From a bacterium (GTDB lineage: Bacteria; UBA8248): a DNA stretch of 64,000 bases. This document shows, piece after piece, positions 16,372 through 49,217 of this stretch. The position numbers were made by a program, and so were the translations under genes. Where the stretch lies: positions 1,280,001 through 1,344,000 of the forward strand of contig CBDCRP010000003.1 in NCBI GenBank assembly GCA_965221165.1, given 5' to 3'. Below the pieces are notes generated by a model, which did not search any database, had not been told where the DNA came from, and worked only from the letters and a program-made list of their open reading frames with translations. Positions within the stretch are counted from its first letter, which is position 1. The number at the start of each line of letters is the position of its first letter.

Positions 16372-18344
<1,973 letters not shown>

Positions 18345-18480: not shown

Positions 18481-18509
18481 TATATAGGGGAAAAGAAACC
18501 ATTTGTCAA
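18481..18509 (-). promoter_or_regulatory. Sigma70-type promoter of groESL
   Basis: Minus strand TTGACA-17 nt-TATATA. Confidence 0.7.
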
Positions 18510-18515
18510 GCGCTG

Positions 18516-18542
18516 TTAGCACTCAAGGCACTAGACTGCTAA
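18516..18542. promoter_or_regulatory. CIRCE operator (HrcA site) of groESL
   Basis: TTAGCACTC-N9-GACTGCTAA, one mismatch to consensus TTAGCACTC-N9-GAGTGCTAA. Confidence 0.92.
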
Positions 18543-35940: not shown

Positions 35941-37320
35941 TCAGTTCCCATCCAGCTTGCGGTAAATGGTGCGCGTGGCGATTCCCAGAAGACGGGCGGC
36001 GGCGCTTTTGTCACCACCCGTGTGGCGGAGGGTCTCCAGGATCACCCGGCGCTCAACCTCCGCGAGCGGGGTGCCGATCTCGAGGTTGATGAGCGGCAAG
36101 TCCGACGCCATCGGCTGTTCCTGGCTCGAGCGCTCGCCCCGGGCGACTTGCGCAGGCAAATCATCCACCGAAAGAATTTCTCCCCGGCTCAACACCACGG
36201 CGCGCTCCACCATATTTTCGAGTTCCCGCACATTTCCCGGCCAATGGTAGTTCGACATCGCATCGAGCGCCTCGCGTGAAAACGCGAGAGCGGGGCGGTT
36301 GTTCTTCGCGGCGAAACGCTGAAGGAAATGCTCGGCGAGAAAGGGAATGTCGCTGCGCCGATCCCGCAGAGAGGGCAGGTGGATGGTGATCACGTTCAGG
36401 CGATAGTAGAGGTCGTCGCGAAACCTCTTCTCGGCCACGGCGGTTTGCAAGTCCGCGTTGGTGGAAGCCACGATCCGCGCGTCCACCTTGAGGGTTTCCG
36501 TCCCGCCGACGCGCTCGAATTCGCCCTCCTGCAAGACGCGAAGAATCTTCGGCTGAAGAACGGGGGGCATATCCCCGATTTCATCGAGAAACAGCGTACC
36601 CTCGTCCGCGAGCTTGAAGCGGCCTTCCTTCCGGCCCACGGCGCCCGTAAACGCCCCGCGCTCGTAGCCGAAGAGTTCGCTCTCGAGGAGGTTCTCCGGC
36701 AGCGCCGCGCAGTTCACCTTCACCATCGCCTTGCCCGCTCTATCGCTCGCCTCGTGCAGGGCGTTCGCCACCAGTTCCTTGCCCGTCCCGCTCTCGCCCA
36801 GAATCAGGACCGTGGCCGCGGTGGGCGCGACCTGGAGAACCATCTCCTTCACCCGGCGAATCGAGGGGTGGTTGCCCATCATGCCCGAAGTGTCTCTCAG
36901 GCTCTGAAGCTGCGCCCGCAAATCCGCGTTCTCGCGCAGGAGCGCCTGTTTTTCGAGCGCCTTGTCTATCGCTTTGAGAACAACCACGCGCTCCAGCGGC
37001 TTGGTCAAAAAATCATAAGCCCCCTCGCGCATCGCCTCGACGGCCGACTCGATGCTCCCGGCGCCGGAAATCAGAATCACTTCCGTATCCGGGCTGATGC
37101 GCTTGACCTCCTTGAGCAACCCGATGCCGTCCATCCCGGGCATTCTGAGATCGGTGATCAGCAGATTCACGGGCTCGGCGACGAACATCTCGGCGGCGGT
37201 TTCCGCGTCATGCGCCATGGCGACGTCGAACCCCTCCTTGGCGATCATCTTCTGGAGGGCTTCGCGGCTGCCTCGCTTGTCGTCCACCACCATCACGCGC
37301 GCGCCGGCGTGGCCGCTCAT
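35941..37320 (-). CDS. Sigma54-dependent response regulator (NtrC family)
   Basis: Receiver domain, GESGTGKE, GAFTGA, WPGNVREL and a Fis-type HTH. Confidence 0.95.
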   Translation of the reverse strand: MSGHAGARVMVVDDKRGSREALQKMIAKEGFDVAMAHDAETAAEMFVAEPVNLLITDLRMPGMDGIGLLKEVKRISPDTEVILISGAGSIESAVEAMREGAYDFLTKPLERVVVLKAIDKALEKQALLRENADLRAQLQSLRDTSGMMGNHPSIRRVKEMVLQVAPTAATVLILGESGTGKELVANALHEASDRAGKAMVKVNCAALPENLLESELFGYERGAFTGAVGRKEGRFKLADEGTLFLDEIGDMPPVLQPKILRVLQEGEFERVGGTETLKVDARIVASTNADLQTAVAEKRFRDDLYYRLNVITIHLPSLRDRRSDIPFLAEHFLQRFAAKNNRPALAFSREALDAMSNYHWPGNVRELENMVERAVVLSRGEILSVDDLPAQVARGERSSQEQPMASDLPLINLEIGTPLAEVERRVILETLRHTGGDKSAAARLLGIATRTIYRKLDGN

Positions 37321-39524
37321 GCCTTCACCTCCTGCACCACGGGGAGCGGCAGTTCGACGATGAAAGTGGCCCCCGCCCCCTCCTCGCTTTCAAAGCGGAT
37401 GCTTCCCTTGTGCTCGGTGATGATCTGCTGGCTCAGCACGAGTCCGAGGCCCGTTCCATTCACCTTCGTCGTGAAAAACGGCGTGAATAAAGAGGCCTGA
37501 TCCTTGAGGCTGATCCCGGCGCCGCTGTCCGATATCCTGATGGTGAGGTGCTGGTTTTCCAGTTCGGTCCTGACCAGGAGACGACCACCATCGGGCATCG
37601 CGTCGAACCCGTTCAAGATAAGATTCTGAATGGCGACGCGCATTTGCGTTTCATCCAGGACGACGTCGGGCACATCTCTTTCCAGTTCCTTTTCAATCCG
37701 GATTTTTCTGCTCGCCGCCACTTCCGCGTGGAAAATCAGTAAATCCTCGATCATCTCGTTGCAGTCGACCGATGTTCTCTCCGGGCTCGGCATCCGCACG
37801 AATTTGAGATAATCGGCCGTCACCTGGCTGATAATATCCACTTCCGCCCTCACGGATCTGAGCAACGCCCACGCCTCGGAGGTATCCGACTCCTTGAATT
37901 GCGACAACTCATCGCCGAGCAATTCCGCGTTCAGGTTGATGGCCGAGAGCGGGTTGCGTACGGAATGCGCAATCTGGGTGCTCATCTTACCGACGATCGA
38001 GAGCCTGTCGCGTTGCAAGACTTCCTTCTCGAGCGCCTTGCGCCCGGTCACATCCTTCAAATACAAAATCACTTGCAGCGTCGCTCCCGAGGCGTCGAGA
38101 ATCGGGTAGGTGTAGTATTCCATCTCCATCCGGCGCCCATCGTCCCACGAAATCGATTTTTCGAAAAAGCCCGGTTCGCCGGTCGCAAAAGTATCGACGA
38201 TCAGGGATCGCTCGACGAAAGGCTCTGGCACCGCGGTGAGCGGCGATATCTCCCATTGTTGATCCAGCAACTCGGAAACCTCGCGCCCGAAGAGCCTGGC
38301 CATCGAGCGATTGAGCATCCGGATGCGAAAATCCTTGTCCAGAATGCCGATGGCGTCCGTGATGCCGTCGAACAGCGCCTGAAGCCGTCTGTTGCTCTCC
38401 AGCACCTGCTCGGACCAGTGTATCCTGTCCTCGGCCCGTATGCGCCTGCGCTCGCGATCGAGTATCAAAAGGGCGGCCAGAATCAAGGAGATGAACGCGA
38501 AACCCGTCAAGAGCAGACCTTTTCGGAACAAGCGCCCGATCAACCCGACGAACTCCGCAGATGGCGCCGTGAGGGCGAAAGTCCATCTCTCATGCCCCAC
38601 CGGGAAGCTGCTGAAAGCCGTCAGGTATCGCAGGCTTTTCTCTTTTTTCTCGGGCCTCAAGTCCAGGTGCCAATCGAAACCCTTCTCTTCCGTCTTCATG
38701 CGCCCGACCAGTTTTTCCAGTCTCTCATCCCCCAATGCGCGCGCGAGGGTGGACAAATGGATGCCCTCCAGCCGGGGGATGCCCGGAGGAAAGATGATTC
38801 TACCCTCGCCGTCCACGAGCCACGCCCGTCTCCGGCTTCCCGATTGAACGGGTTCGACGAACGCGCGCACCAAATCCGCCATGGAAATGCGCGCGTAGAG
38901 CCATTCGCGCTTTCGCTGCCTCTCTCCTCCTTTGGGCCCATCCTCCTTCGACGCCACGGGCACCGCCACGAACAGGGAGGCGACCCTTCGGGCCTCGTCC
39001 CGAATCACGAGAAGACAGGCGCCTTCCGGCCAGGCGCAGCCCCGTAACGTATCGAGGTATTCCTTCGGAATCGCGGCGCTCGACTCGTGGCCTTCCTGCA
39101 GATACCCCACCTCGCTCACGCGGAACCTTCCGCCCAGCCTTTCGTACAAGCCGCTCATCGCCGCCATTCTTCCCGGATGATGGGGTTCGATCGTGCGCAG
39201 AAAGCCCGCGCTGTAGCGCAAAGACGCCGTGAGCGCCTCCAGGAAAGAAGCAATCCGGTCGCCTGCCTGCTCCACGAGAAGAAGCTGCTGGCGGTTGAAT
39301 CTCTCTGCGATCTCGGCCTTGGCGTCCACGTAGTGCCGATTGGAGAGAAAAATCAATATCCCTATCAAAACGAACGTCCAGGCTATCGTATGATACTGGA
39401 ACTTGCGGTTCACCCGGCGCGATTGCGCGATTCGCGAGCGCGCCGTCCCGTAAGGCCGCGGCAGCCCCCGCTTGCGCCATCTATCGAGAATTCCCCTCAA
39501 CAACCTCGTCCATGCGCTCGACAT
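37317..39524 (-). CDS. Membrane sensor histidine kinase with periplasmic (Cache-like) and PAS domains
   Basis: Two TM segments, H-box AHSVRNPL, N-box, DSGAG, PFFTTK and GTGLGL. Start uncertain. Confidence 0.9.
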   Translation of the reverse strand: MSSAWTRLLRGILDRWRKRGLPRPYGTARSRIAQSRRVNRKFQYHTIAWTFVLIGILIFLSNRHYVDAKAEIAERFNRQQLLLVEQAGDRIASFLEALTASLRYSAGFLRTIEPHHPGRMAAMSGLYERLGGRFRVSEVGYLQEGHESSAAIPKEYLDTLRGCAWPEGACLLVIRDEARRVASLFVAVPVASKEDGPKGGERQRKREWLYARISMADLVRAFVEPVQSGSRRRAWLVDGEGRIIFPPGIPRLEGIHLSTLARALGDERLEKLVGRMKTEEKGFDWHLDLRPEKKEKSLRYLTAFSSFPVGHERWTFALTAPSAEFVGLIGRLFRKGLLLTGFAFISLILAALLILDRERRRIRAEDRIHWSEQVLESNRRLQALFDGITDAIGILDKDFRIRMLNRSMARLFGREVSELLDQQWEISPLTAVPEPFVERSLIVDTFATGEPGFFEKSISWDDGRRMEMEYYTYPILDASGATLQVILYLKDVTGRKALEKEVLQRDRLSIVGKMSTQIAHSVRNPLSAINLNAELLGDELSQFKESDTSEAWALLRSVRAEVDIISQVTADYLKFVRMPSPERTSVDCNEMIEDLLIFHAEVAASRKIRIEKELERDVPDVVLDETQMRVAIQNLILNGFDAMPDGGRLLVRTELENQHLTIRISDSGAGISLKDQASLFTPFFTTKVNGTGLGLVLSQQIITEHKGSIRFESEEGAGATFIVELPLPVVQEVKA

Positions 39525-39602
39525 AAGCATTCCCAGGAAAATCGGCTGGTTTCGACCAGCCTTGTCGCCCAAGGTCCGGGATTCGGGTATGAGGGTCCGA
39601 AA

Positions 39603-39699
39603 ACCACTCCCCCGCCCCGGCGCCACCAGCTTGACAGGGGGGAAATCCCCCCATATCTTGCACAAATTAGCACTCCATGAGCCGGAGTGCCACACCAAA
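39603..39699 (+). repeat. Direct repeat copy 1 (97 bp): duplicate of the hrcA promoter plus CIRCE
   Basis: Nearly identical to 44039-44135; contains TTGACA (39631)-17 nt-TATCTT and a CIRCE. Confidence 0.95.
39667..39693. promoter_or_regulatory. CIRCE operator upstream of the RM cassette
   Basis: TTAGCACTC-CATGAGCCG-GAGTGCCAC, identical to the hrcA copy. Confidence 0.85.
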
Positions 39700-39748
39700 T
39701 CCAGCGCGGAAGACTTGCAACCGTGACCGGCAACCTCAAGAGTACGGG

Positions 39749-41785
39749 ATGGCCACAATGAACAAGATGACAAACGAATCCAGCGAATTTGCACTTTTCT
39801 CCGAGGAGGAGAATCGGGCTCTTGACGAACGCACGTTTATAAAGAATGTAAGAGGCAAGCCAGCGACTTGCGTAAATTGCCTAATTCGCGGTAAGGACGT
39901 GCAACTAAAACCCGAAGAACGCATCCGGCAACTATGGCTGTCCCGCTTAATCGACCAATATGACTATTCCCCCTCACGCATCGCGCTTGAATACTCGATC
40001 ATTTTTGGCCGCGACAGTTCCAAGCGAGCCGACATCGTCGTGTTCGACGCTGACCGTCCCACCGTACCTTACATCATAATCGAAGTGAAACAGGGCAAAC
40101 TGCGCGATGGGAAAGAACAACTTCGCTCCTATGCTCATGCAACCGGCGCGCCGCTGGTTATGTGGAGCAATGGAATTCTAGCCGAAGTCTGGCACCGCAA
40201 GAATCCCAACTACTTCGTTCCCATTCATCATCTCCCACGCGCCAACCAGACGATTGAGGCCATTGTCGATCAGCCTTGGACCATCGAAACCCTTATCTTC
40301 AAGGAGAATGAACGCGAGCGCGAAGGGTCCAAGGCCCGGTCGCTGCGTGATCTGATTGTCGAGATGGAGAACGAAGTTCTCGCGAACGCTGGCGTGGACG
40401 TGTTCGAAGAGGTGTTCAAACTTGTCTTCACCAAACTCTACGACGAGATGTTTCACTACCGGGGCAGACATCCGTTCTTGCGCTTTCGCAACAGCAACAC
40501 GGCAGCACAACTGAAGAGTACGATACAGGAACTTTTCGACGAGGCGAAACAGCAATGGCCCGGTGTGTTCTTGTTCGACGAACGCATCCGCCTTTCCCCT
40601 GATCACTTACAGGTCTGTATCGGCTCACTCGAAGAATGGAAGCTGTTCAACTCCAATCTCGACGTGATCGACGACGCATTCGAGTATCTCGTGAACAAGT
40701 CGTCGAAAGGTGAAAAAGGCCAATACTTCACGCCACGCTGGGTAATCGACATGTGTGTGAAGATGCTCAACCCGCAAGAACATGAGGCGGTAATTGACAC
40801 CGCTTGCGGTTCATCGGGCTTCACCGTGCATACCATGTTCCATGTCTGGCGCAACATCATCGCCGACATGGGATTAAAGGAAAGCCACCTGCTCACGATG
40901 GATGGCAAACCCTCGCGTTGTGAAGACTATGTGCGCGACAAAATGTTCGCAATTGACTTCGATGAAAAGAGCGTTCGCGTCTCGCGCTGTCTGAATCTGA
41001 TTGCGGGCGATGGAGAAACCAACGTCCTGCATCTAAATACGCTCGATTGGCCCAAGTGGGACGAGACCGTGAAGGAAGATGATTGGTTGGATGCCTACGG
41101 CGAAGGCTGGCGGCGGTTGCGTAAACTGCGGGCTAAGACTAAACAAGCGGACTACCGACAGTTCAAGTTCGAAATCCTCATGGCCAATCCGCCCTTCGCA
41201 GGCGACATCAAACAATCCGACATGCTTGCTCCCTATGACTTGGCCCATAAAAAGACAGGTAAGCTGGAACGCGCCGTTGGCCGTGACCTTTTGTTCATCG
41301 AGCGCAACCTCGACTTCCTAAAACCCGGCGGGCGCATGGCGATTGTTTTGCCGCAAGGGCGGTTCAACAACTCGTCCGATCAGCGGGTACGTGAGTTCAT
41401 CATGGAACACTGTCGTATTCTTGCCGTTGTGGGCTTGCACCCAAACACATTCAAACCCCACACTGGCACCAAGACCAGTGTCCTGTTTGTTCAGAAATGG
41501 AACGACAATCCCGCTGCCGGACCACTTTGCCCGAAGGTGGACGATTACAACATATTCTTCGCCACTCAACAGGTAGAAAGCGTCAACAACAGCGGCGAGA
41601 AGGTTTACGTGCGCAACAACGACGGAAACCCGATGCGGGATGCACATGGGCATTTCATTGTCGCTCATGATCTGTTCAATCATGAAGGAAAGACACAAAA
41701 CGGGGTCGCCGAAGCCTTTCGAGAATTCGCTGCCGGGGAGGGCTTAAGTTTTTTTCGCCCCGCCCCTTCGACGGTAGCCAACTAA
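39749..41785 (+). CDS. Restriction-modification enzyme: HsdR_N-type nuclease domain fused to N6-adenine methyltransferase
   Basis: PEERIRQ...RADIVVF...IIEVK nuclease motifs; KGQYFTPR, DTACGSSGF (motif I) and ANPPF (motif IV). Lower GC than flanks. Start uncertain (39749, 39758 or 39767). Confidence 0.9.
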   Translation: MATMNKMTNESSEFALFSEEENRALDERTFIKNVRGKPATCVNCLIRGKDVQLKPEERIRQLWLSRLIDQYDYSPSRIALEYSIIFGRDSSKRADIVVFDADRPTVPYIIIEVKQGKLRDGKEQLRSYAHATGAPLVMWSNGILAEVWHRKNPNYFVPIHHLPRANQTIEAIVDQPWTIETLIFKENEREREGSKARSLRDLIVEMENEVLANAGVDVFEEVFKLVFTKLYDEMFHYRGRHPFLRFRNSNTAAQLKSTIQELFDEAKQQWPGVFLFDERIRLSPDHLQVCIGSLEEWKLFNSNLDVIDDAFEYLVNKSSKGEKGQYFTPRWVIDMCVKMLNPQEHEAVIDTACGSSGFTVHTMFHVWRNIIADMGLKESHLLTMDGKPSRCEDYVRDKMFAIDFDEKSVRVSRCLNLIAGDGETNVLHLNTLDWPKWDETVKEDDWLDAYGEGWRRLRKLRAKTKQADYRQFKFEILMANPPFAGDIKQSDMLAPYDLAHKKTGKLERAVGRDLLFIERNLDFLKPGGRMAIVLPQGRFNNSSDQRVREFIMEHCRILAVVGLHPNTFKPHTGTKTSVLFVQKWNDNPAAGPLCPKVDDYNIFFATQQVESVNNSGEKVYVRNNDGNPMRDAHGHFIVAHDLFNHEGKTQNGVAEAFREFAAGEGLSFFRPAPSTVAN

Positions 41786-41803
41786 GCGAACTGTTGGAGG
41801 GGC
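41749..41803 (+). other. Candidate programmed -1 ribosomal frameshift signal
   Basis: T TTT TTT at 41749-41755 in the RM frame, 6-nt spacer, 14-bp stem 41762-41775/41790-41803. The -1 frame is open into the S ORF. Confidence 0.7.
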
Positions 41804-43212
41804 TAGAAGCCTCAATCTTGTCAATCAACGAATGGCGTGAAGACAACGTCTTTTTTCGGCTCGATAGTGAGTATCAGTCCAAGACTCATGTTGTGGCTAT
41901 CGAGTCGCTCAAACAGTTTGGGGCTGTTCAACTCAAAGATGACCAACCCGAGATCATCCATCCGCATGAAATCAAGCGGGAGTATGTCGAAGAGGATGGG
42001 GTTTGGTTCCTTCGAGCCCAGAATGTTAGGCCACTAAGAATTAGCCCAACGAACAAGGTATTGATTTCAAAGGACGACGCTAACAAGCTTACCAAAAACG
42101 TGATTAAAACTAATGACGTGTTGATAACCAGAACAGGCGCTAACCGCGGAGAGTGTGCAATTTTTGATCGAAAAGAGTGCGCCATTGCCTCTTCACATAC
42201 TTTCATCATCCGTCCACAGAAAATTGATCCGAAATTTCTAACTGTTTTTATGAATTGCGTTTATGGAAAAACTCAAATCGACAAAGGTGTTTATGGTGCG
42301 GCGCAGCCTGAAATTGCGCCTTATTACCTTGGTAATATCTGGATTCCGACTGTCAGCGCCTCTTTTGTCATGCGCATTAAGTCTATATTCGATACCTCAA
42401 CGGCAAATAACACTTTGACCGAGACCAAGCAAAAGGAAGCTGAGGAAACGCTGCTTGCTGCTCTTGGGCTGGCGGATTGGACGCCGCCAGAACCTCTCAG
42501 CTATATCGCCCGCGCCAGTAATGCCTGCACCGCTGGGCGGTTAGATGCACAGTATTTCATGCCTGCCAAAGAACAGGTATGCCAGTCTCTCGCTGCGATG
42601 CCAGGAAGCAGCTTGGGCGAGTGCGTTGATTGCATACGTGAAATGTTCGTACCAAACAGTGCTACTAACACGATGAAATTACGAAATTACGATGTGACCG
42701 ATGCGCTTGTACCCATTCTCAACTCTGAGAAACAGCCCTCTTTCGCCGTCGAGATCGGCAGCAACAAGAAAACTTTCAAAGACGGCGACGTTGTGATCTC
42801 CCGTTTACGAGCCTACCTAAAGGAAATCGCCGTTGTGCGAATCAACGATGAGTTCCCCTCGGTCGGCTCATCGGAGTTCATCGTTCTGCGACTGAAAAAA
42901 AGCAAGTCCGATATCTCGCCGGAAACGCTTATGGTATTCCTTCGTTCAATCCCGGTGCAGACCATTCTGAAGTGGTGCCAAGACGGATCACAACACCCGC
43001 GTTTCAGTGAGGGCGACTTGCTGTCTATTACAGTGCCCGATGCCGTAGTCAGAGTCTCCAAAAAGATCACCAAGAGCATTCAAGAAGGTTTCGCCGCTCG
43101 CCACCAAGCCCGCCAGCTTCTCGAAGAAGCTAAGCGCGCTGTTGAGATCGCCATTGAAAACGGAGAAGCCGCCGCAATGACCTTCCTTGACCAAGCCGTA
43201 GGGGCAAGCTGA
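41794..43212 (+). CDS. Restriction specificity (HsdS-like) subunit with two target-recognition regions
   Basis: RLDSEY and RLDAQYF repeats, DVLITRTGA, GAAQP and GDVVISRLRAYL motifs. TTG start without a clear RBS. Confidence 0.85.
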   Translation: MEGLEASILSINEWREDNVFFRLDSEYQSKTHVVAIESLKQFGAVQLKDDQPEIIHPHEIKREYVEEDGVWFLRAQNVRPLRISPTNKVLISKDDANKLTKNVIKTNDVLITRTGANRGECAIFDRKECAIASSHTFIIRPQKIDPKFLTVFMNCVYGKTQIDKGVYGAAQPEIAPYYLGNIWIPTVSASFVMRIKSIFDTSTANNTLTETKQKEAEETLLAALGLADWTPPEPLSYIARASNACTAGRLDAQYFMPAKEQVCQSLAAMPGSSLGECVDCIREMFVPNSATNTMKLRNYDVTDALVPILNSEKQPSFAVEIGSNKKTFKDGDVVISRLRAYLKEIAVVRINDEFPSVGSSEFIVLRLKKSKSDISPETLMVFLRSIPVQTILKWCQDGSQHPRFSEGDLLSITVPDAVVRVSKKITKSIQEGFAARHQARQLLEEAKRAVEIAIENGEAAAMTFLDQAVGAS

Positions 43213-44003
43213 TGACACTTCCTTCTCATGCAGCAGACTGGATGAGCCGGGCCGAGATCGACTATATCGGTCCTTTCCTCAAAGCTTGGGCCGCGTTCAA
43301 CGCATGGTATCGCCACGACTCGGGACAGGCTCAGGAGCGCGACATGCTGGAGCATGTGAAAAACCGGCCTAACGCGGTGCGGCGGAGCATTCTACCTTTG
43401 TTGGATAAAAACAATGAAACCGCTGATGCGCTGAAACTAAAGCAAGCAGTCTACGACCTTCAACAACGCCTCGACGCCATTCATCTTGAGGTAACACACA
43501 AAGGAGTCAATGAACGTATTTCGCTTCGCACAGTTTGCATCCAATCCCAGCCTTTGCAACAGCGGCAGCATGTCCGCTATAGGAACGAGTTCAAAGCAGA
43601 AAGGATTCAGGGTGGAGCAATCGAGATCACAGTCACTTCTCAACAAACACAGCAAGTACGCTTTAAGCACACACAAGAGCAATATGCTCCCAACGAAGTT
43701 TATGCTCTTCCCAGCTTTACCGAGAGCCTCACGGAAGACCAGCGCAACACACTTATTGGGTTCTATGACAGTTGCAACCCGCGTCCTGTGCGCGACCTCG
43801 TTATGGGAGGCGGGCCAGCATTGTCCATAGGGACCATGCAGTTCCATTGCAGCCCGGAGGATCTATTATCTGGGTTGGTAGAAACTATCTATGCGATGCG
43901 AAATGCATTATTTCACGGTGAAGTGGAACCTGAATCGCAAATCTTAGCCTGCTATGAACCAGCTTACCGGATCGTTATGCAGTTCCTCACCTGCATTCAG
44001 TAA
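43212..44003 (+). CDS. Putative HEPN-domain protein (RNase)
   Basis: N-terminal FLKAWAAFNAWY and C-terminal IYAMRNALFHG (RxxxxH); TGATG overlap with the S gene. Confidence 0.6.
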   Translation: MTLPSHAADWMSRAEIDYIGPFLKAWAAFNAWYRHDSGQAQERDMLEHVKNRPNAVRRSILPLLDKNNETADALKLKQAVYDLQQRLDAIHLEVTHKGVNERISLRTVCIQSQPLQQRQHVRYRNEFKAERIQGGAIEITVTSQQTQQVRFKHTQEQYAPNEVYALPSFTESLTEDQRNTLIGFYDSCNPRPVRDLVMGGGPALSIGTMQFHCSPEDLLSGLVETIYAMRNALFHGEVEPESQILACYEPAYRIVMQFLTCIQ

Positions 44004-44038
44004 AAAATGACCCCTCGGGAACGAAAAAGGATACCCAC

Positions 44039-44135
44039 ACCACTCCTCCGCCCCGGCGCCACACGCTTGACAGGGGGAAAATCCCCCCATATCTTGCACA
44101 AATTAGCACTCCATGAGCCGGAGTGCCACACCAAA
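44039..44135 (+). repeat. Direct repeat copy 2: native hrcA promoter plus CIRCE
   Basis: TTGACA at 44067, TATCTT at 44090, CIRCE at 44103-44129. Confidence 0.95.
44103..44129. promoter_or_regulatory. CIRCE operator of hrcA
   Basis: TTAGCACTC-N9-GAGTGCCAC directly upstream of hrcA. Confidence 0.9.
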
Positions 44136-44173
44136 ATACTGCGACGAAGACGCCGCACCGGGAGACTTTCAAA

Positions 44174-45226
44174 ATGGACGCCCTGGAACTTGCCCAGAGA
44201 AACCGGGAAATCCTGCGCGCCATCATCAACATTTTCGTGGATACGGGCGAACCCGTGGGGAGCCGCACGCTCTCGAAGTATTCGGACCTAGCCTTGAGCC
44301 CCGCCACCATCCGCAACATCATGAGCGACCTGGCCGACGCGGGCTTTCTCACCAAGCCCCACATCTCCTCCGGCAGGCTCCCCACCGACCTGGGGTATCG
44401 CGTTTTCGTCGACGATCTGATGGATTCCCATACCCTCACGAGCGAGGAGCAGGAATCCATGCGCCTCGGCGCTTCCGCGCAAGCCGCTCAAATCGAACAG
44501 GTGCTCGCGCAGGCCACGCGCATACTCTCCGAACTCACCAACACGGCGGGGCTCGTGCTCCTGCCCGCAGGGGAGCAACTCCACTTCAAGCACATCAACT
44601 TCGTCAAGATGTCGGAAGAAAAAACCCTGGCCGTCATCGTCTCCATGAGCGGAGTGGTGCAAAACCGCGTCATCCCGACCGATACTCCCATCAGCCAGGA
44701 TGAGATGAACAGGGTTTCCAACCTGCTGAACGAGGAGTTCAGCGGTCTCGCCTTAAGAGAGGTGCGCGGGAAGATAATCCAGAAAATGACCCATGCGCGC
44801 GACAACCTCGATACCCTCTACCAGCAGGCTCTCAAGCTCAGCAAAGAGGCGCTCTCAGAAAGCGAAGCCGCGCAGGAATCCGTTTTCGTGGAGGGGGCGT
44901 CACGCGTGTTCTCACAACCCGATTTCGCCACCAACGCCGAGAAGCTCCAGACTCTCTACCGCACGTTCGAGGAGAGGGAGAAGCTCGTCCGCCTGCTGGA
45001 CAAATGCCTCGAATCCTCGGACATCACCATTCTCATCGGTTCCGAGAACGATTTCGAGGAGATGAAGGATTGCAGCGTCGTCGCCCAGCGCTACTACATG
45101 GACGACCGCCCGCTGGGCAGCATCGGCATCATCGGGCCCAAGCGCATGCGCTACGATCGCGCCGTGTCGCTGGTGGAATGGACGGCGGATTCGGTATCGA
45201 AATTCCTCTCCTCCGGAAAGCGTTAG
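44174..45226 (+). CDS. hrcA: Heat-inducible transcription repressor HrcA
   Basis: EPVGSRTL, SPATIRNIMSDL, PHISSGRLPT..GYR and GIIGPKRMRY motifs. Confidence 0.97.
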   Translation: MDALELAQRNREILRAIINIFVDTGEPVGSRTLSKYSDLALSPATIRNIMSDLADAGFLTKPHISSGRLPTDLGYRVFVDDLMDSHTLTSEEQESMRLGASAQAAQIEQVLAQATRILSELTNTAGLVLLPAGEQLHFKHINFVKMSEEKTLAVIVSMSGVVQNRVIPTDTPISQDEMNRVSNLLNEEFSGLALREVRGKIIQKMTHARDNLDTLYQQALKLSKEALSESEAAQESVFVEGASRVFSQPDFATNAEKLQTLYRTFEEREKLVRLLDKCLESSDITILIGSENDFEEMKDCSVVAQRYYMDDRPLGSIGIIGPKRMRYDRAVSLVEWTADSVSKFLSSGKR

Positions 45227-45275
45227 GCAAAAAAGCGCTTTCATCCCCATATCCCCCGGCGGAGGTCATGATTCC

Positions 45276-46355
45276 TTGAACATCGCCGACGCCCTCAAAA
45301 TCCTGGGTCTGGAGAAAAGCGCCTCCACATCCCAACTCAAGAGCGCCTACAAAAAACTGGCACTGGAATTCCATCCGGACAGAAACCCGGACGACCCCGA
45401 GGCGGAAAGGCGCTTCAAACAGATAATCATCGCGCATGAAATCCTGAAAGACCCGAAACGCCCAGACCCCCACGGAACACCCCGTGCGAAGAAATCCACT
45501 CAGCCCCGAAACGGGTACGAGGAAAAATGGGAGGATATTTTCTCCCACATTTTCCGAAACGCGCGCGAATCGGGCGATGCGGAAAAAAGCGCACCCCAGG
45601 ACCTGCACGCCCAAATCGAGGTGACGCTCGAGGACCTCCTGGGAGACACCACAAAGGAAATTCCCGTCTCGCGCCGGATGCGCTGCGCTTCATGCGGGGG
45701 GCGCGGCGCCGATCCCCATACCCGAATGAGCGCCTGCCCCGCGTGCAAGGGCGCGGGCGAGGTTCGCTACCGTCAAGGACTCGCGGAGTTGCGCATCCCC
45801 TGTTCGGCCTGTGCGGGGAGCGGCGAATACACGGGCGAGGCGTGCGGGGCCTGCGGGGGAGAGGGCCGCACGGCCGGGCGAGATACCGTGAAGGTGGCGA
45901 TTCCCGCCGCGGCCCAAGAAGGCGCGCAAATCAAAATCAAGGGCAAGGGCGATGAGGGCGCGGACGAGGCGGGAGACCTCATCGTCACGGTGCGCGCAAA
46001 ACCCCACCCGATATTCGAGAGAGAGGGCAACCACATCCTCTTCGACCTGCCGGTGAGTTTTTCTCAAGCCGCCCTCGGCCACGAAGCCCTCGTGCCCACG
46101 CTTAAGGAAGCCCGGAAAATCAAGATTCCCGCCGGAACCCAATCGGGCCGGGTGTTTCGCTTGAAGGGAGAGGGATTATCGCCTGCGGGAGGGCGGAACA
46201 CGGGCGATCTGCGCGTCCGCGTGATCATCGAAACGCCCACCAAGCTCAACCAGCGTCAGCGGGAAATTTTAGCCGAGTTTCAAAGAATTTCCTCGCCCTC
46301 CACGCATCCGCGAACCCGGAAATTTCTGGAGAAAATGAAATCCCGTCTCGAATGA
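45276..46355 (+). CDS. dnaJ: DnaJ family chaperone
   Basis: J-domain HPD, four CxxCxGxG repeats and a C-terminal domain. Confidence 0.85.
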   Translation: MNIADALKILGLEKSASTSQLKSAYKKLALEFHPDRNPDDPEAERRFKQIIIAHEILKDPKRPDPHGTPRAKKSTQPRNGYEEKWEDIFSHIFRNARESGDAEKSAPQDLHAQIEVTLEDLLGDTTKEIPVSRRMRCASCGGRGADPHTRMSACPACKGAGEVRYRQGLAELRIPCSACAGSGEYTGEACGACGGEGRTAGRDTVKVAIPAAAQEGAQIKIKGKGDEGADEAGDLIVTVRAKPHPIFEREGNHILFDLPVSFSQAALGHEALVPTLKEARKIKIPAGTQSGRVFRLKGEGLSPAGGRNTGDLRVRVIIETPTKLNQRQREILAEFQRISSPSTHPRTRKFLEKMKSRLE

Positions 46356-46472
46356 CATGGCCCGGCCCGCCTTGTTGCGCCCGAAATTTCTTGCTACATA
46401 TCTCTTCCGGAAAACAAAATTCACCAGCCTGTCCGATATATCCACGAAAATCAGACATAGGAGCATTACACA

Positions 46473-47558
46473 TTGTCGAATCAAGCCCTCATCGACGAGT
46501 TCATCGAGAAGACGCAAAAACTGAACGGCCGGCCCGTGCGCGAGCGCGAGGCGTGGAACAACGAGGCGAGCGCCGACGCCATCCGCCATTTCGCATACGG
46601 CATCGACGACGACAACCCGCTTTGGCTGGACGCCGGATACGCAGCCGGCACCGCCTACGATAACGTCATGGCGCCACCCGCGTTTCTGGTGTCTGTCCTC
46701 TACCCGATTCTGCACGGAGCGCCCATGGAGGTTCCGCTCTCCTCCCTCATCGGGGGCGTGGAGTTCGAATGGGAAAAACCCATACCGCTCGGAGCCAAGC
46801 TCCGCGCGGAGTCCATCCAGAAAGATTCCTTCGTCAAGACGAACAAGGCGGGCCGACAACTTATCTTCATCATCTCCGAGTGCACCTACTGGAACGAGGA
46901 GGATGAGGTCGTCGCCAGGGGCACCGGCACGATGATAAGGACCCTCCAGGAGGGAAACGCGCTCCTCTACGAGAGGCCGATCAAGCAATACGGCGAGGCG
47001 GAGTTCCAGGAAATTGAACACGCCTACGAGGCCGAGGAGAGAAAAGGCGGCGAGAAGCGCCGCTTCGCGGAAGTATCCGTCGGGGATGAACTCCCGCCCA
47101 TGCTTCGCGGCCCCCTCACCATCGGCGACATGGTGGCCTGGAACGCGGGCAACGGCCCATCCTACAAGGCGGGAAGACGCGGCTATCTGGACCTCAAAAA
47201 AGCGCCGCACAACGCCGTCCTCATCCCCCAGATCGGCATCAAGGTGAAAAACTCCCAGCAACACGAGGACTTCAACCTCGCCTCGGGGCGCGGGATGCCG
47301 GGTCCGTTCGACAACGGCGTCATGCGCTTCGCCTGGGTGAGCCCCTTCATCACCAACTGGATGGGGGACGATGCCTTTCTCAAGAACCTCTACGTCCAGG
47401 TGCGCCGCCCCATGATCTATGGCGACACCATCCGGCACACGGGCAAGGTGGTCGAGAAAAACGAGGCCGACGGCACCGTGAAGGTGGAAATTACCGGAAC
47501 GAACCAGGAAGGCGAACTGGCGACGGCGGGCTCGGCCGTGGTTCGGCTGCCGGAATAA
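46473..47558 (+). CDS. Double hotdog MaoC/FAS1-like dehydratase
   Basis: AIRHFAYGIDDDNPLW, APPAF and a second hotdog domain with QHED and GDT. Confidence 0.8.
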   Translation: MSNQALIDEFIEKTQKLNGRPVREREAWNNEASADAIRHFAYGIDDDNPLWLDAGYAAGTAYDNVMAPPAFLVSVLYPILHGAPMEVPLSSLIGGVEFEWEKPIPLGAKLRAESIQKDSFVKTNKAGRQLIFIISECTYWNEEDEVVARGTGTMIRTLQEGNALLYERPIKQYGEAEFQEIEHAYEAEERKGGEKRRFAEVSVGDELPPMLRGPLTIGDMVAWNAGNGPSYKAGRRGYLDLKKAPHNAVLIPQIGIKVKNSQQHEDFNLASGRGMPGPFDNGVMRFAWVSPFITNWMGDDAFLKNLYVQVRRPMIYGDTIRHTGKVVEKNEADGTVKVEITGTNQEGELATAGSAVVRLPE

Positions 47559-47571
47559 AACGCGAGAGCCT

Positions 47572-48450
47572 GTGAAGAAAAAATGGCTCGAACTCATGGT
47601 TCAGGTTCGTGACGATCTGGCCGAGGAGGCATCCGCCCGCATATTGGACGCAGGCGCATCTGCCGTCGAGCAGCGAGACGGCGCGGGGGAAGCATCGCTC
47701 CTCATCACGCACATCGCCCTTGAAGACGGTGCGACGGCGAAACTCCGCACGATAGAAGCCCTCCTCACCGGCCTGGGCGTTGCGAAGAGCGCCATCACAC
47801 TCAAAAACATCGAGGATCAGGACTGGATCGCCCAGTCACGGGGTCATTTCAAGGGCGAAGCCTATGGGGAGAAACTCTGGGTGAGGCCGCCCTGGGATGA
47901 AAACGAGACGCCGGGCGGGCGCATCGAACTGATCCTGGAGCCGGGCCTCGCCTTCGGCACGAGCAGGCATCCCTCCACGCGCCTGGCCCTGCTCGCCGTT
48001 GAAAACGAATGCGCCAGAAAACCTCCCGAACGCATGGTGGACTTAGGGTGTGGTTCGGGCATCCTGGGCGTCGCCGCCCTTCTCTATGGCGCAAGGCAGG
48101 TGGCGGCGTTCGACCTGGACCCGAAGGCCGTGGAGGAGACCATGGCGCTTGCGCAAAGAAACGGGGTAGGAGATTGCATGACGACGCGCAACACGACACT
48201 TGCGGCAGGCGCGCTCGAAGACTGGTGGGGCCTCGTTGATTTCGTCGCGGCGAACATCTTCCTGGGCGCTCTCAGAGAACTCGCGCCGCTCATTCACGGG
48301 GCGCTCGCTCCCGGGGGCCGGGCCGTTCTCTCAGGGATAGGCTACGAGCAGGCGGACGCTCTCGCCCGCATCTACAGAGAGGCCGGCTTCACGCTCGAGA
48401 AGACGAGCCGAATCGAGGAGTGGGCGAGCATCGAGGTTTCAAAACCATGA
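47572..48450 (+). CDS. prmA: Ribosomal protein L11 methyltransferase
   Basis: EPGLAFGT..HPST, DLGCGSGIL, ANI and LSGI motifs. Confidence 0.93.
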   Translation: MKKKWLELMVQVRDDLAEEASARILDAGASAVEQRDGAGEASLLITHIALEDGATAKLRTIEALLTGLGVAKSAITLKNIEDQDWIAQSRGHFKGEAYGEKLWVRPPWDENETPGGRIELILEPGLAFGTSRHPSTRLALLAVENECARKPPERMVDLGCGSGILGVAALLYGARQVAAFDLDPKAVEETMALAQRNGVGDCMTTRNTTLAAGALEDWWGLVDFVAANIFLGALRELAPLIHGALAPGGRAVLSGIGYEQADALARIYREAGFTLEKTSRIEEWASIEVSKP

Positions 48451-49217
48451 CGCGCGACGGACTGCGGCTTTTCTACGTCGAGCCCGAAGCGGTTCAGGGC
48501 GAGCGAATCGTCCTGGGGACGGAGGAATCCGCGCACATCCGCCGCGTCCTCAAGATGAAGGCGGGCGCGATTTGCCGCGTGGCCACCGAGGATGGGCGTG
48601 AATACAAGGTGGAGCTGACGGAAATCGACGCCGATGAAAGCACCGCCCAAATCATCGAGCGCCTGCCCGAAAGACCGCCCTCCCCCATGTCGATATCCTT
48701 AGGACTTCCCCTGCTCAAAGGGGAGCGGTTCGAGTGGGTCCTCCAGAAAGCTTGCGAACTGGGTGTCGATACGTTTTATCCGCTTGCGCTCGATAGGTGC
48801 GAAGTCAGGATTCAGGAGAAAAGGAGCGCCGAGCGCCACAGACGCTGGCGGCGAATCGTACTGGAAGCCGCCAAGCAGTGCGACCGCGTGCCCCCGCCTG
48901 TTGCGCATCCACTCGGCGACCTCAAGGGTTTTCTCGCCGAAACGAAGGATTTTGATCTCAAAATCATGGGGTATCTGGGAGAAGAAGCAATTTCCGCCAA
49001 ACAAGCGCTATCGCGAGTGCGCCGGGATACGACCGCCGCGCCGCTTCGCGTCGCCCTCCTGACCGGTCCCGAGGGAGACCTCACGAACGAGGAATCAGGA
49101 GGAGCGATGGATTGCGGTTTCCTGCCGGTATCCCTGGGCCCCAGAATCCTGCGCGCAGACACGGCTCCCGTCTCGCTCGTCACCATCGTGCAACACGCCC
49201 TGGGGGATATGGGTTGA
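48447..49217 (+). CDS. rsmE: 16S rRNA m3U1498 methyltransferase
   Basis: HIRRVL, QKACELGV, EAAKQC, GPEG and LGPRILRADTA motifs. Confidence 0.95.
   Translation: MTRDGLRLFYVEPEAVQGERIVLGTEESAHIRRVLKMKAGAICRVATEDGREYKVELTEIDADESTAQIIERLPERPPSPMSISLGLPLLKGERFEWVLQKACELGVDTFYPLALDRCEVRIQEKRSAERHRRWRRIVLEAAKQCDRVPPPVAHPLGDLKGFLAETKDFDLKIMGYLGEEAISAKQALSRVRRDTTAAPLRVALLTGPEGDLTNEESGGAMDCGFLPVSLGPRILRADTAPVSLVTIVQHALGDMG

Follow-up and report, generated by a model that had tools for sequence, protein, structure and literature searches.

A three-gene restriction-modification cassette between two copies of the hrcA promoter: probable insertion by long target duplication and predicted entry into the HrcA regulon

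The window described here is a stretch of 64,000 nucleotides (nt) from a bacterium of the GTDB lineage UBA8248 (assembly GCA_965221165.1, contig CBDCRP010000003.1, positions 1,280,001 to 1,344,000 of the forward strand). It contains a cassette of three genes, here called A, S, and H, that is located between a sensor histidine kinase gene and hrcA and is bracketed by two copies of the hrcA promoter with its CIRCE (controlling inverted repeat of chaperone expression) operator. An original prediction, made from the letters of the window, had presented this arrangement as a heat-shock-inducible defence system consisting of a restriction-modification (R-M) unit and a HEPN-motif protein. The locus is treated below together with its probable origin, its predicted mode of expression, and its relation to known systems.

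Genes and repeats of the cassette

The inserted DNA extends from position 39715 to 44038 on the plus strand (4,324 bp), as deduced from composition and alignments. Its content of guanine plus cytosine (GC) is 51% (0.511), as against 0.616 and 0.62 in the 10-kb flanks, and its DNA outside the three coding sequences amounts to 43 nt at the 5' end and 35 nt at the 3' end. This agrees with the lower-GC, three-gene cassette between repeats of the original prediction, which had also remarked on the lack of an integrase or transposase: Pfam detected neither of them in the cassette or in the open reading frames (ORFs) of 180 aa or more located up to ~11 kb to its left and right.

Gene A (39758 to 41785, plus strand) codes for a protein of 675 aa in which, according to Pfam, an N-terminal PD-(D/E)XK-type nuclease (HSDR_N_2) is fused to an N6-adenine methyltransferase. 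The motif D...EVK is present in the nuclease part and NPPF is found at residue 477. The protein matches PADLOC family PDLC03034 over its full length (E = 0). The solved structure closest to it is that of RM.BsaXI (8w0p; E 1.7e-22), a match that covers only the methyltransferase residues 303-584. The start codon at 39758 (ATGAACAAGAT) is shared by many homologues. Two more in-frame ATG codons are located 5' of it, at 39749 and, within the CIRCE sequence, at 39677. The long ORF that opens at 39677 does not represent gene A; it starts inside CIRCE, and many homologues begin as at 39758.

Gene S (41794 to 43212, plus strand) encodes a specificity subunit of 472 aa (Pfam Methylase_S; PADLOC Specificity_I over the full length, E 1.2e-43). 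It has a TTG start codon that is conserved among its homologues, and its stop codon overlaps the ATG of H by one base (TGATG, 43210-43214). Besides the window, 9 of 13 loci examined (among L049-L087) have the same type of overlap (TGATG or TAATG), so that translation of S and H is probably coupled. The predicted nuclease-methyltransferase and specificity subunit were thus both recovered by Pfam and PADLOC, and A and S together are predicted to form a type IIB-like R-M enzyme of the BcgI/BsaXI kind. The frames of A, S, and H are all full length, with catalytic motifs. Identity with a MADS system was rejected because the scores of A and S for MAD2 (320.7 bits, cut-off 720) and MAD5 (130.7 bits, cut-off 400) are too low and only three genes are present.

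The third gene, H (43212 to 44003, plus strand), codes for a protein of 263 aa with a predicted helical core, an inserted beta domain, and the motif R230-N231-x3-H235. This motif (RNALFH) fits the HEPN signature R-x(4-6)-H, is located near the C-terminus, and has its R230, N231, and H235 invariant in 30 of 30 aligned homologues. A protein search returned 399 homologues at E <= 0.001, of which the 120 listed are 59-87% identical; two homologues bear the UniRef name "Apea-like HEPN domain-containing protein". H itself matches no family of Pfam, NCBIfam, or PADLOC, none of the 30 aligned members matches a HEPN family of Pfam at E <= 1, and no ATPase or other sensor domain was found in H. In the AlphaFold model (predicted local distance difference test, pLDDT, 79.4; predicted template modelling score, pTM, 0.67), a beta-rich insert at ~92-155 interrupts the helical core. 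Foldseek found nothing in the PDB for this model at E <= 0.001, a profile of H found nothing among PDB sequences below E 0.38, and the ESM Atlas yielded unnamed clusters only. Using VIA-align, the helical part was matched to six HEPN-type chains (8oz7_A, which is the AbiA C-terminal domain, 1wwp_B, 1jog_A, 8xdj_A, 2hsb_A, and 5yep_B) with Z values of 4.7-5.4, which are weak (Z < 8) and stand among unrelated helical and beta matches of equal Z. The HEPN-motif protein of the original prediction is therefore there as far as the motif is concerned; its assignment to HEPN goes further than the motif and the weak fold matches carry it. "HEPN-like" is used here as a reasonable label for H that is taken from the motif, and not as a statement of demonstrated membership. 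A prediction of the complex of S and H gave a score of 0.00, the mark to be reached being 0.32, a result that has no bearing either way on binding of the two proteins.

A repeat search over 38500-45500 revealed a sole long family of direct repeats (39592-39699 and 44028-44135) with a spacing of 4436 and an identity of 92%. By pairwise alignment and by multiple alignment with relatives, the homologous segment was delimited to 39603-39714 (112 nt) and 44039-44151 (113 nt), both on the plus strand. Two repeats of 97 bp had been reported; the repeats exist and are 15 nt longer than that. The left copy is continuous with the flank of the kinase gene and ends in ...GAAGAC, which corresponds to 22 nt before the ATG of hrcA in the empty sites of relatives, and the right copy is continuous with the leader of hrcA. 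There are exactly two copies of the segment in the whole 3.69-Mb genome (E 3e-59 and 3e-40).

Each copy carries the promoter sequence TTGACA-17-TATCTT (39631 to 39659 and 44067 to 44095, plus strand). These two are the only sigma70-like sites between 39300 and 46500 in a scan limited to the sigma70-type consensus. Each is followed by a CIRCE-like palindrome, TTAGCACTC-N9-GAGTGCCAC. The left one (39667 to 39693, plus strand) reads TTAGCACTC-CATGAGCCG-GAGTGCCAC and begins 7 nt past the -10; the right one (44103 to 44129, plus strand) is identical and ends 44 nt before the ATG of hrcA, as in relatives. The consensus, TTAGCACTC-N9-GAGTGCTAA, is a 9-nt inverted repeat with a 9-nt spacer, and 16 of its 18 arm positions are matched in both copies, the two mismatches being in the right arm. 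The window contains three CIRCE-like sites, as against none in 100 shuffles. The third of them (18516 to 18542, no strand assigned) has one mismatch and lies upstream of groES (18048-18323, minus strand). In 15 same-genus loci and in locus L022, the arms are fixed at 44 nt before the ATG of hrcA, the 9-nt spacer being variable. With these conserved arms and a clear hrcA equivalog, a CIRCE operator at hrcA is credible. A fourth CIRCE-like palindrome (G000:C3:144544-144570, locus L045), with one mismatch to a degenerate pattern, has a NAD-kinase-like gene on one side and a gene for an ABC transporter ATPase on the other and is not located at a chaperone gene.

The two copies of the repeat differ at nine positions, namely, by eight substitutions and one 1-nt indel. 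Three of the differences are in the first 26 nt, one is in the 68-nt core, and five are in the last 19 nt. As had been claimed in the original prediction, the -35, the -10, and CIRCE are untouched by any of them: From the -35 through the end of CIRCE, the copies are one base apart, in the promoter spacer, and the identical core common to both is 57 nt long. The 68-nt core is also identical at positions that vary freely in relatives, and both copies share the CIRCE-spacer variant CATGAGCCG, which is present in none of 16 aligned relatives. Each variant state at the outer ends of the repeats, by alignment, occurs in some relative.

An assembly artefact, in which a mis-join would have created the second copy of the repeat or put the cassette in the wrong place, is very improbable. 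Such an origin could be suspected on the grounds that the genome assembly of three contigs has an estimated contamination of 8.5% and that short-read contigs break only inside the identical 57-nt core, so that the contigs alone give no linkage across it. However, all four junctions between repeats and flanks, each with its copy-specific variants, are covered at an even depth of ~9-16 by contigs of two public runs of one sample, which is probably the source sample of the assembly. In addition, the two copies differ at nine positions, and removal of the insert and the duplication restores exactly the ancestral spacer of 207 nt.

The cassette is surrounded by housekeeping genes (metG, holB, tmk, a sigma54 response regulator gene, the kinase gene, hrcA, dnaJ, prmA, rsmE, and purD). 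Its left neighbour, transcribed divergently from it, encodes a sensor histidine kinase with Cache, PAS, HisKA, and HATPase domains (37317 to 39530, minus strand; Pfam). Although its ORF begins with a GTG at 39794, the kinase more likely starts with the ATG at 39530, since this ATG specifies the first Met before the membrane segment and the N-terminus of the relatives aligns from residue 1-3. On the right side, hrcA (350 aa; 44174 to 45226, plus strand) was identified by Pfam HrcA and by TIGR00331 (332 bits, cut-off 197) and is 82-95% identical in same-genus genomes. It is directly followed by dnaJ (45276 to 46355, plus strand; Pfam and NCBIfam). Downstream of hrcA, positions 45276-49217 hold dnaJ, an unknown ORF, prmA, and rsmE, with no grpE-dnaK; grpE is found elsewhere in the genome, behind an htpX-like gene (L112).

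Empty sites, mode of insertion, and related cassettes

The hrcA loci of 40 relatives, 22 of which belong to the same genus, were compared with the window. The distance from the kinase start to the ATG of hrcA is 147-439 nt in 19 of the 22 same-genus loci and 205-209 nt in 14. Two loci from other genera of the family share this empty arrangement, as does one metagenome contig with synteny over 12 kb and an identity of 85%. A single copy of promoter and CIRCE is present in the 17 same-genus loci in which the repeat aligns. In the window, the kinase-hrcA distance is 4,643 nt, that is, 207 + 4,436, and nothing was lost. Metagenomes yielded no strain of the species: There was no match to an exact pattern of 41 nt from the core, and the one match to a degenerate pattern was an empty-site relative of 85% identity.

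The original prediction had anticipated that relatives might have either an empty site with one promoter copy or different cargo between the kinase gene and hrcA, and both situations occur: the former in the 19 same-genus loci mentioned above and the latter in genome G014 (locus L113, G014:C1:1509400-1514500). The kinase-hrcA spacer of G014 holds an insert of 1.27 kb with a GC content of 44% (~1350-2640 of the locus). The encoded protein of 362 aa contains an AbiJ_NTD4 domain (E 1.2e-20) and, at the C-terminus, the motif RNPFGH, and the gene points away from the hrcA promoter; neither a PADLOC match nor long flanking repeats were found for this insert. The spacer has in this way received HEPN-motif defence cargo independently in two species of the genus.

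As judged from its sequence, the cassette is a horizontally acquired foreign insert. This is concluded from its low GC (0.51 as against 0.62 around it) and from its distribution in the genus: Full-length members of the H family occur in this genome only, one of the 22 others having a distant partial match elsewhere, and the best homologue of A in the genus is only ~53-60% identical and located at another site.

Insertion of R-M gene units with long target duplication was reportedly described by Nobusato et al. in 2000 (Gene 259:99). According to Furuta, Abe, and Kobayashi (2010), the class is characterized by R and M functions, an insert of < 20 kb, a duplication of > 30 bp, repeats with a single aligned counterpart in a related genome, and the absence of mobility genes (PMC2853133). 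All five characteristics apply to the cassette: R and M functions are encoded, the insert measures 4,324 bp and the repeats 112/113 nt, relatives have the empty site, and mobility genes were not found. The mode of insertion thus fits the published class, and the repeats are the ordinary scar of this class and no sign of design. Site-specific integration by an integrase at an att site was rejected in view of the repeat length of 112 nt and the lack of both a recombinase and a tRNA target. By comparison with the empty sites, the A-S-H cassette landed in the 207-nt kinase-hrcA spacer, 22 nt before the start codon of hrcA; in the mode proposed here, ~112 nt of the target, including the whole hrcA promoter and CIRCE, would have been copied in the process, leaving one copy on each side of the insert.

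The sequences around the insert have a mosaic relation to those of the closest relative, G005 (L022). Over positions 37317-46355 of the window, the identity to G005 is 96-97% for the kinase gene, 87.5% for the spacer, 93% for hrcA, and 88% for dnaJ; it is 88.6% for the left repeat and 83.4% for the right repeat. For hrcA, the identity to G005 is no better than that to many other species. Such mosaic flanks suggest recombination tracts that end near the insertion. They also bear on a second route of entry that is possible, albeit with a clearly lower probability than the one described above: Campbell-type integration. A circular form of the cassette, set free from a relative through recombination of the repeats that flanked it there and already carrying ~112 nt from the hrcA promoter region, would then have entered by one homologous crossover, without de novo duplication and with the same regulatory outcome. 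Apart from the mosaic flanks, the nine differences fit this route, as they are in the outer parts of the repeats and each state occurs in some relative, as in donor/recipient chimeras. A life cycle of R-M units with insertion, amplification, and release through repeats is proposed in the part of the literature used here (PMC2853133). On the other hand, the CATGAGCCG spacer variant shared by both copies and found in none of the 16 relatives argues for one lineage, and the cassette is present in no other genome of the genus. Neither an excision joint across the cassette nor a circular junction was found in the contigs of the two runs, in which rare forms would be dropped.

Related cassettes were surveyed using one genome per species, which yielded 54 loci with a relative of H. 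Gene A is present upstream of H in 45 of them. Of the nine loci without A, seven reach the end of the contig just upstream of H, one (L096) has neither A nor S in its ~3 kb of upstream DNA, and one (L100) is a degraded remnant; two further loci are cut inside A. The gene order is A, S, H in all 45 loci with A, and S was located between the two others by tblastn in 44. Identity to the proteins of the window is 66-86% for A, 26-67% for S, and 34-71% for H, the low values for S being as expected for recognition domains. According to record titles, the hosts include alpha- and gammaproteobacteria, a cyanobacterium, an Acidobacterium, and a Bacteroidota metagenome-assembled genome (MAG). When the window is compared with those 25 of the other cassettes that are most similar to it, nucleotide similarity is confined to 39756-44005, that is, to the coding sequences. 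The DNA upstream of most cassettes is not conserved, and members of the family are found in unrelated contexts.

A related cassette on a Pseudomonadota MAG contig (L083, 3059-8516) lies directly behind rpoA and is flanked by 626-bp, 98%-identical direct repeats that represent the 3' part of rpoA. The downstream repeat copy encodes the C-terminal part of rpoA again; the frame of A in this cassette extends to 933 aa and is followed by H. From its repeats, this is taken to be another scar of long target duplication among these cassettes, and here, too, the cassette follows a host transcription unit. In a crude analysis, the longest upstream frame was recorded for the window and for 36 loci whose upstream DNA measures 1.5 kb or more: It is co-directional with the cassette in 14 cases and opposite in 23, with gaps of mostly 140-700 nt. 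The procedure miscalled the known rpoA neighbour of L083, and nothing is drawn from these numbers. Two deviating arrangements were seen. In a locus of the same genus (L004, G016:C31:162245-166495), the order is A, H', S; the A homologue is 53% identical and H' is a short H-like N-terminal region with 26% identity over 111 residues. In another locus (L095:3470-6985), the halves of the S gene are separated by ~2.2 kb of extra DNA.

Expression of the cassette and control by HrcA

HrcA represses promoters that carry CIRCE, and its activity depends on GroEL. The CIRCE/HrcA regulon comprises the dnaK and groESL operons of Bacillus subtilis and is present in many other bacteria.

The best explanation of the locus, to which a probability of roughly 0.6 is given, combines insertion by long target duplication, transcription of the cassette from the left copy of the hrcA promoter, and HrcA wiring that came as a by-product. 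As only 43 nt of foreign DNA precede the ATG at 39758 and the upstream gene is divergent, the left promoter copy is the one that would drive the cassette. The transcript would start at ~39666, carry a leader of ~90 nt with CIRCE, and cover A, S, and H. Because promoter and operator are nearly identical on the left and on the right, factors that control the hrcA promoter should do the same at the left copy, so that HrcA would repress the cassette exactly as it represses hrcA-dnaJ and would release it when HrcA is inactive, as upon heat or in the presence of unfolded proteins. Given the exact copy of the hrcA promoter core and CIRCE, and given that there is no room for a promoter of its own, membership of the cassette in the HrcA regulon is the most likely reading. 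No terminator-like site was found in a scan of the plus strand from 43212 to 44174, between H and hrcA; cassette transcripts therefore probably continue into hrcA-dnaJ, which retains its own promoter copy.

As hrcA is autoregulated, its promoter must give steady basal expression, with de-repression under stress, and would not act as an off/on switch. "Heat-shock-inducible defence", the central claim of the original prediction, is in this respect overstated: Induction would be one facet of the expression of the cassette. The wiring would be tolerable to the host, since nuclease and methylase reside in one polypeptide and would rise together without the risk of imbalance.

Expression of the cassette that is independent of the duplicated promoter, starting in the 43-nt leader or within A, is unlikely, and the same holds for the view that the cassette is a silent recent arrival. 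The promoter scan recognizes the sigma70-type consensus only, the organism has sigma54 activators as well as a sigma factor resembling RpoH, and the foreign DNA opens at 39715 with a TTGCAA hexamer. However, this hexamer is not followed by a second one at the proper spacing, and the divergent orientation of the upstream gene leaves no read-through from upstream. The core of the left promoter, moreover, is identical to that driving the essential-type hrcA-dnaJ operon. With regard to silence, an active nuclease-methylase fusion needs to be expressed to protect the genome, and the frames are intact.

The two hrcA promoter copies also fit a sigma32-type pattern, CTTGAC-N13-CCCCATAT (39630-39656 and 44066-44092). 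The wider pattern CTTGAM-N12-15-CCCCATNT has five matches in the genome, as against none in a reversed control; behind the three matches outside the repeats, no recognizable heat-shock gene was found. The best RpoH-like protein of the genome scores 179.9 bits, the family cut-off being 323. The groES promoter reads CTTGAC-N13-CCCCTATA (18481-18511, minus strand), and the CIRCE sequence there is upstream of its -35.

A number of points weigh against insertion by target duplication followed by expression from the captured hrcA promoter. The sigma32-type match might mean that induction depends on HrcA, on an RpoH-like factor, or on the two together. The 26 nt at the upstream end of the left copy, which differ from those of the right copy, or the new downstream context could alter the strength of the promoter. 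A weak promoter or one for another sigma factor may be present in 39715-39757 or in the kinase-proximal spacer, which were scanned for sigma70-type sites only. The start site, the heat response, and the read-through are all inferred, from the arrangement of promoter, operator, and genes. As for the insertion itself, long flanking repeats occur in only 2 of 44 cassettes, those of the window and of L083, and in none of the other 42 tested. A difference of 8% between copies that have an identical core is not explained by a simple recent duplication, and together with the mosaic flanks it suggests that recombination took place later or that a pre-formed circle was integrated. With regard to the original prediction, the insert of G014 makes the kinase-hrcA spacer look like a landing spot irrespective of the promoter, which speaks against promoter wiring as a choice.

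This last point leads to the question of whether the wiring itself was selected. In its adaptive form, the proposal states that the cassette was selected to be part of the HrcA regulon because restriction and the HEPN effector are then boosted under proteotoxic stress, for which phage proteins that titrate GroEL would be one cause. Its arguments are the intact -35, -10, and CIRCE in both copies (p ~0.02 under uniform placement of the differences, (74/113)^9), the intact state of A, S, and H, and the dependence of HrcA on GroEL. A 4.5-fold increase of type I hsdR upon heat, given in the part of an S. thermophilus transcriptome study that was used here, can be added to these (PMC3192767). Motif sparing, which the original prediction had pointed out, is explained equally well by position, with the nine differences clustered at the repeat ends. 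Differences at the ends, core positions that are identical although unconstrained in relatives, and a shared private spacer variant tell of a history of conversion or recombination rather than of selection on the motifs, and later exchange with cassette-free relatives that ended inside the repeats, or a pre-formed circle, would put the differences at the ends. The duplication is a generic scar of the mode of insertion, the AbiJ-like gene in the same spacer of G014 faces away from the hrcA promoter, cassettes of the family occur elsewhere in unrelated contexts, and the arrangement is known from one genome only. An adaptive, stress-gated defence is accordingly rated as improbable, and the HrcA wiring of the cassette is most likely a by-product of the landing site that is not demonstrably selected.

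A long target duplication with capture of the hrcA promoter would have consequences beyond this locus. An insertion scar can hand over a regulon: A promoter-less cassette gains a host promoter and the host gene keeps its own copy, which offers acquired genes a one-step route into an existing regulon. Identical promoter-operators in front of chaperone genes and of an R-M unit also make the locus a test case for heat-shock tuning of anti-phage systems. A far-reaching view, which is given a low probability here, holds that A-S-H is a widespread minimal mobile defence unit that can enter by long target duplication and live off copied host promoters, that H, coupled to a type IIB enzyme, represents a new effector of the HEPN type, and that in the present case capture of CIRCE would make the unit rise when HrcA loses the support of GroEL. 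The borrowing of promoters as a property of the trio is deduced from two scars, that of the hrcA promoter in the window and that of the 3' end of rpoA in L083. If true, this would be a natural antiviral defence wired to the sensing of proteostasis, for example, of phage capsid proteins that load the chaperonin.

Comparison with known systems

Within the long-target-duplication class, as documented in the part of the source used here, the window has the same features as the published members: R and M only, no integrase or transposase, an insert of < 20 kb with lower GC, repeats far longer than 30 bp, and a single copy of the repeat in a related genome (PMC2853133). The window differs in that the duplicated target is a complete regulated promoter with its operator and that the insert is without a promoter of its own, so that the scar supplies the expression signals. 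A discussion of regulatory capture by a duplication scar was not found in the sections of that source that were used (PMC2853133).

Type IIB enzymes such as BcgI and BsaXI resemble A in having a nuclease and an N6-adenine methyltransferase in one chain, and they work with a separate type-I-like S protein with two recognition domains. Enzymes of this kind cleave on either side of a bipartite recognition site, which they also methylate. The window differs from them by the conserved third gene, H, after S. BcgI/BsaXI systems are not known to have a counterpart of H. The locus draws attention to an unstudied three-gene, type IIB-like system with a constant HEPN-like third gene in several phyla.

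HEPN genes embedded in R-M operons are in themselves a well-described theme, represented by PrrC/RloC, AbiJ, AbiU2, and ApeA in the part of the survey used here (PMC3710099, Anantharaman et al. 2013). Like the HEPN RNases of R-M operons described there, H is a small protein with R-N-x3-H near the C-terminus and weak fold matches. It differs from the known HEPN RNases in matching no HEPN family, in the beta-rich insert in its helical core, and in having no ATPase or sensor domain.

With the CIRCE/HrcA regulon, the window shares TTAGCACTC-N9-GAGTGC.. between the -10 and the start codon, and both hrcA and groES carry the operator. The difference is in the regulated genes, which would be those of an R-M/HEPN-like cassette and not chaperone genes. 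Literature on HrcA, CIRCE, and R-M revealed, at the level of titles and abstracts, no R-M unit behind a CIRCE promoter.

In conclusion, the parts of the system are known: the mode of insertion, the type IIB enzyme, HEPN partners of R-M systems, CIRCE/HrcA, and heat-induced transcripts of type I R-M genes. The third member of the trio is new in that it is in none of the family libraries searched (Pfam, NCBIfam, PADLOC). New, above all, is the combination of an A-S-H trio with a duplication that hands a complete promoter-operator to a promoter-less cassette.

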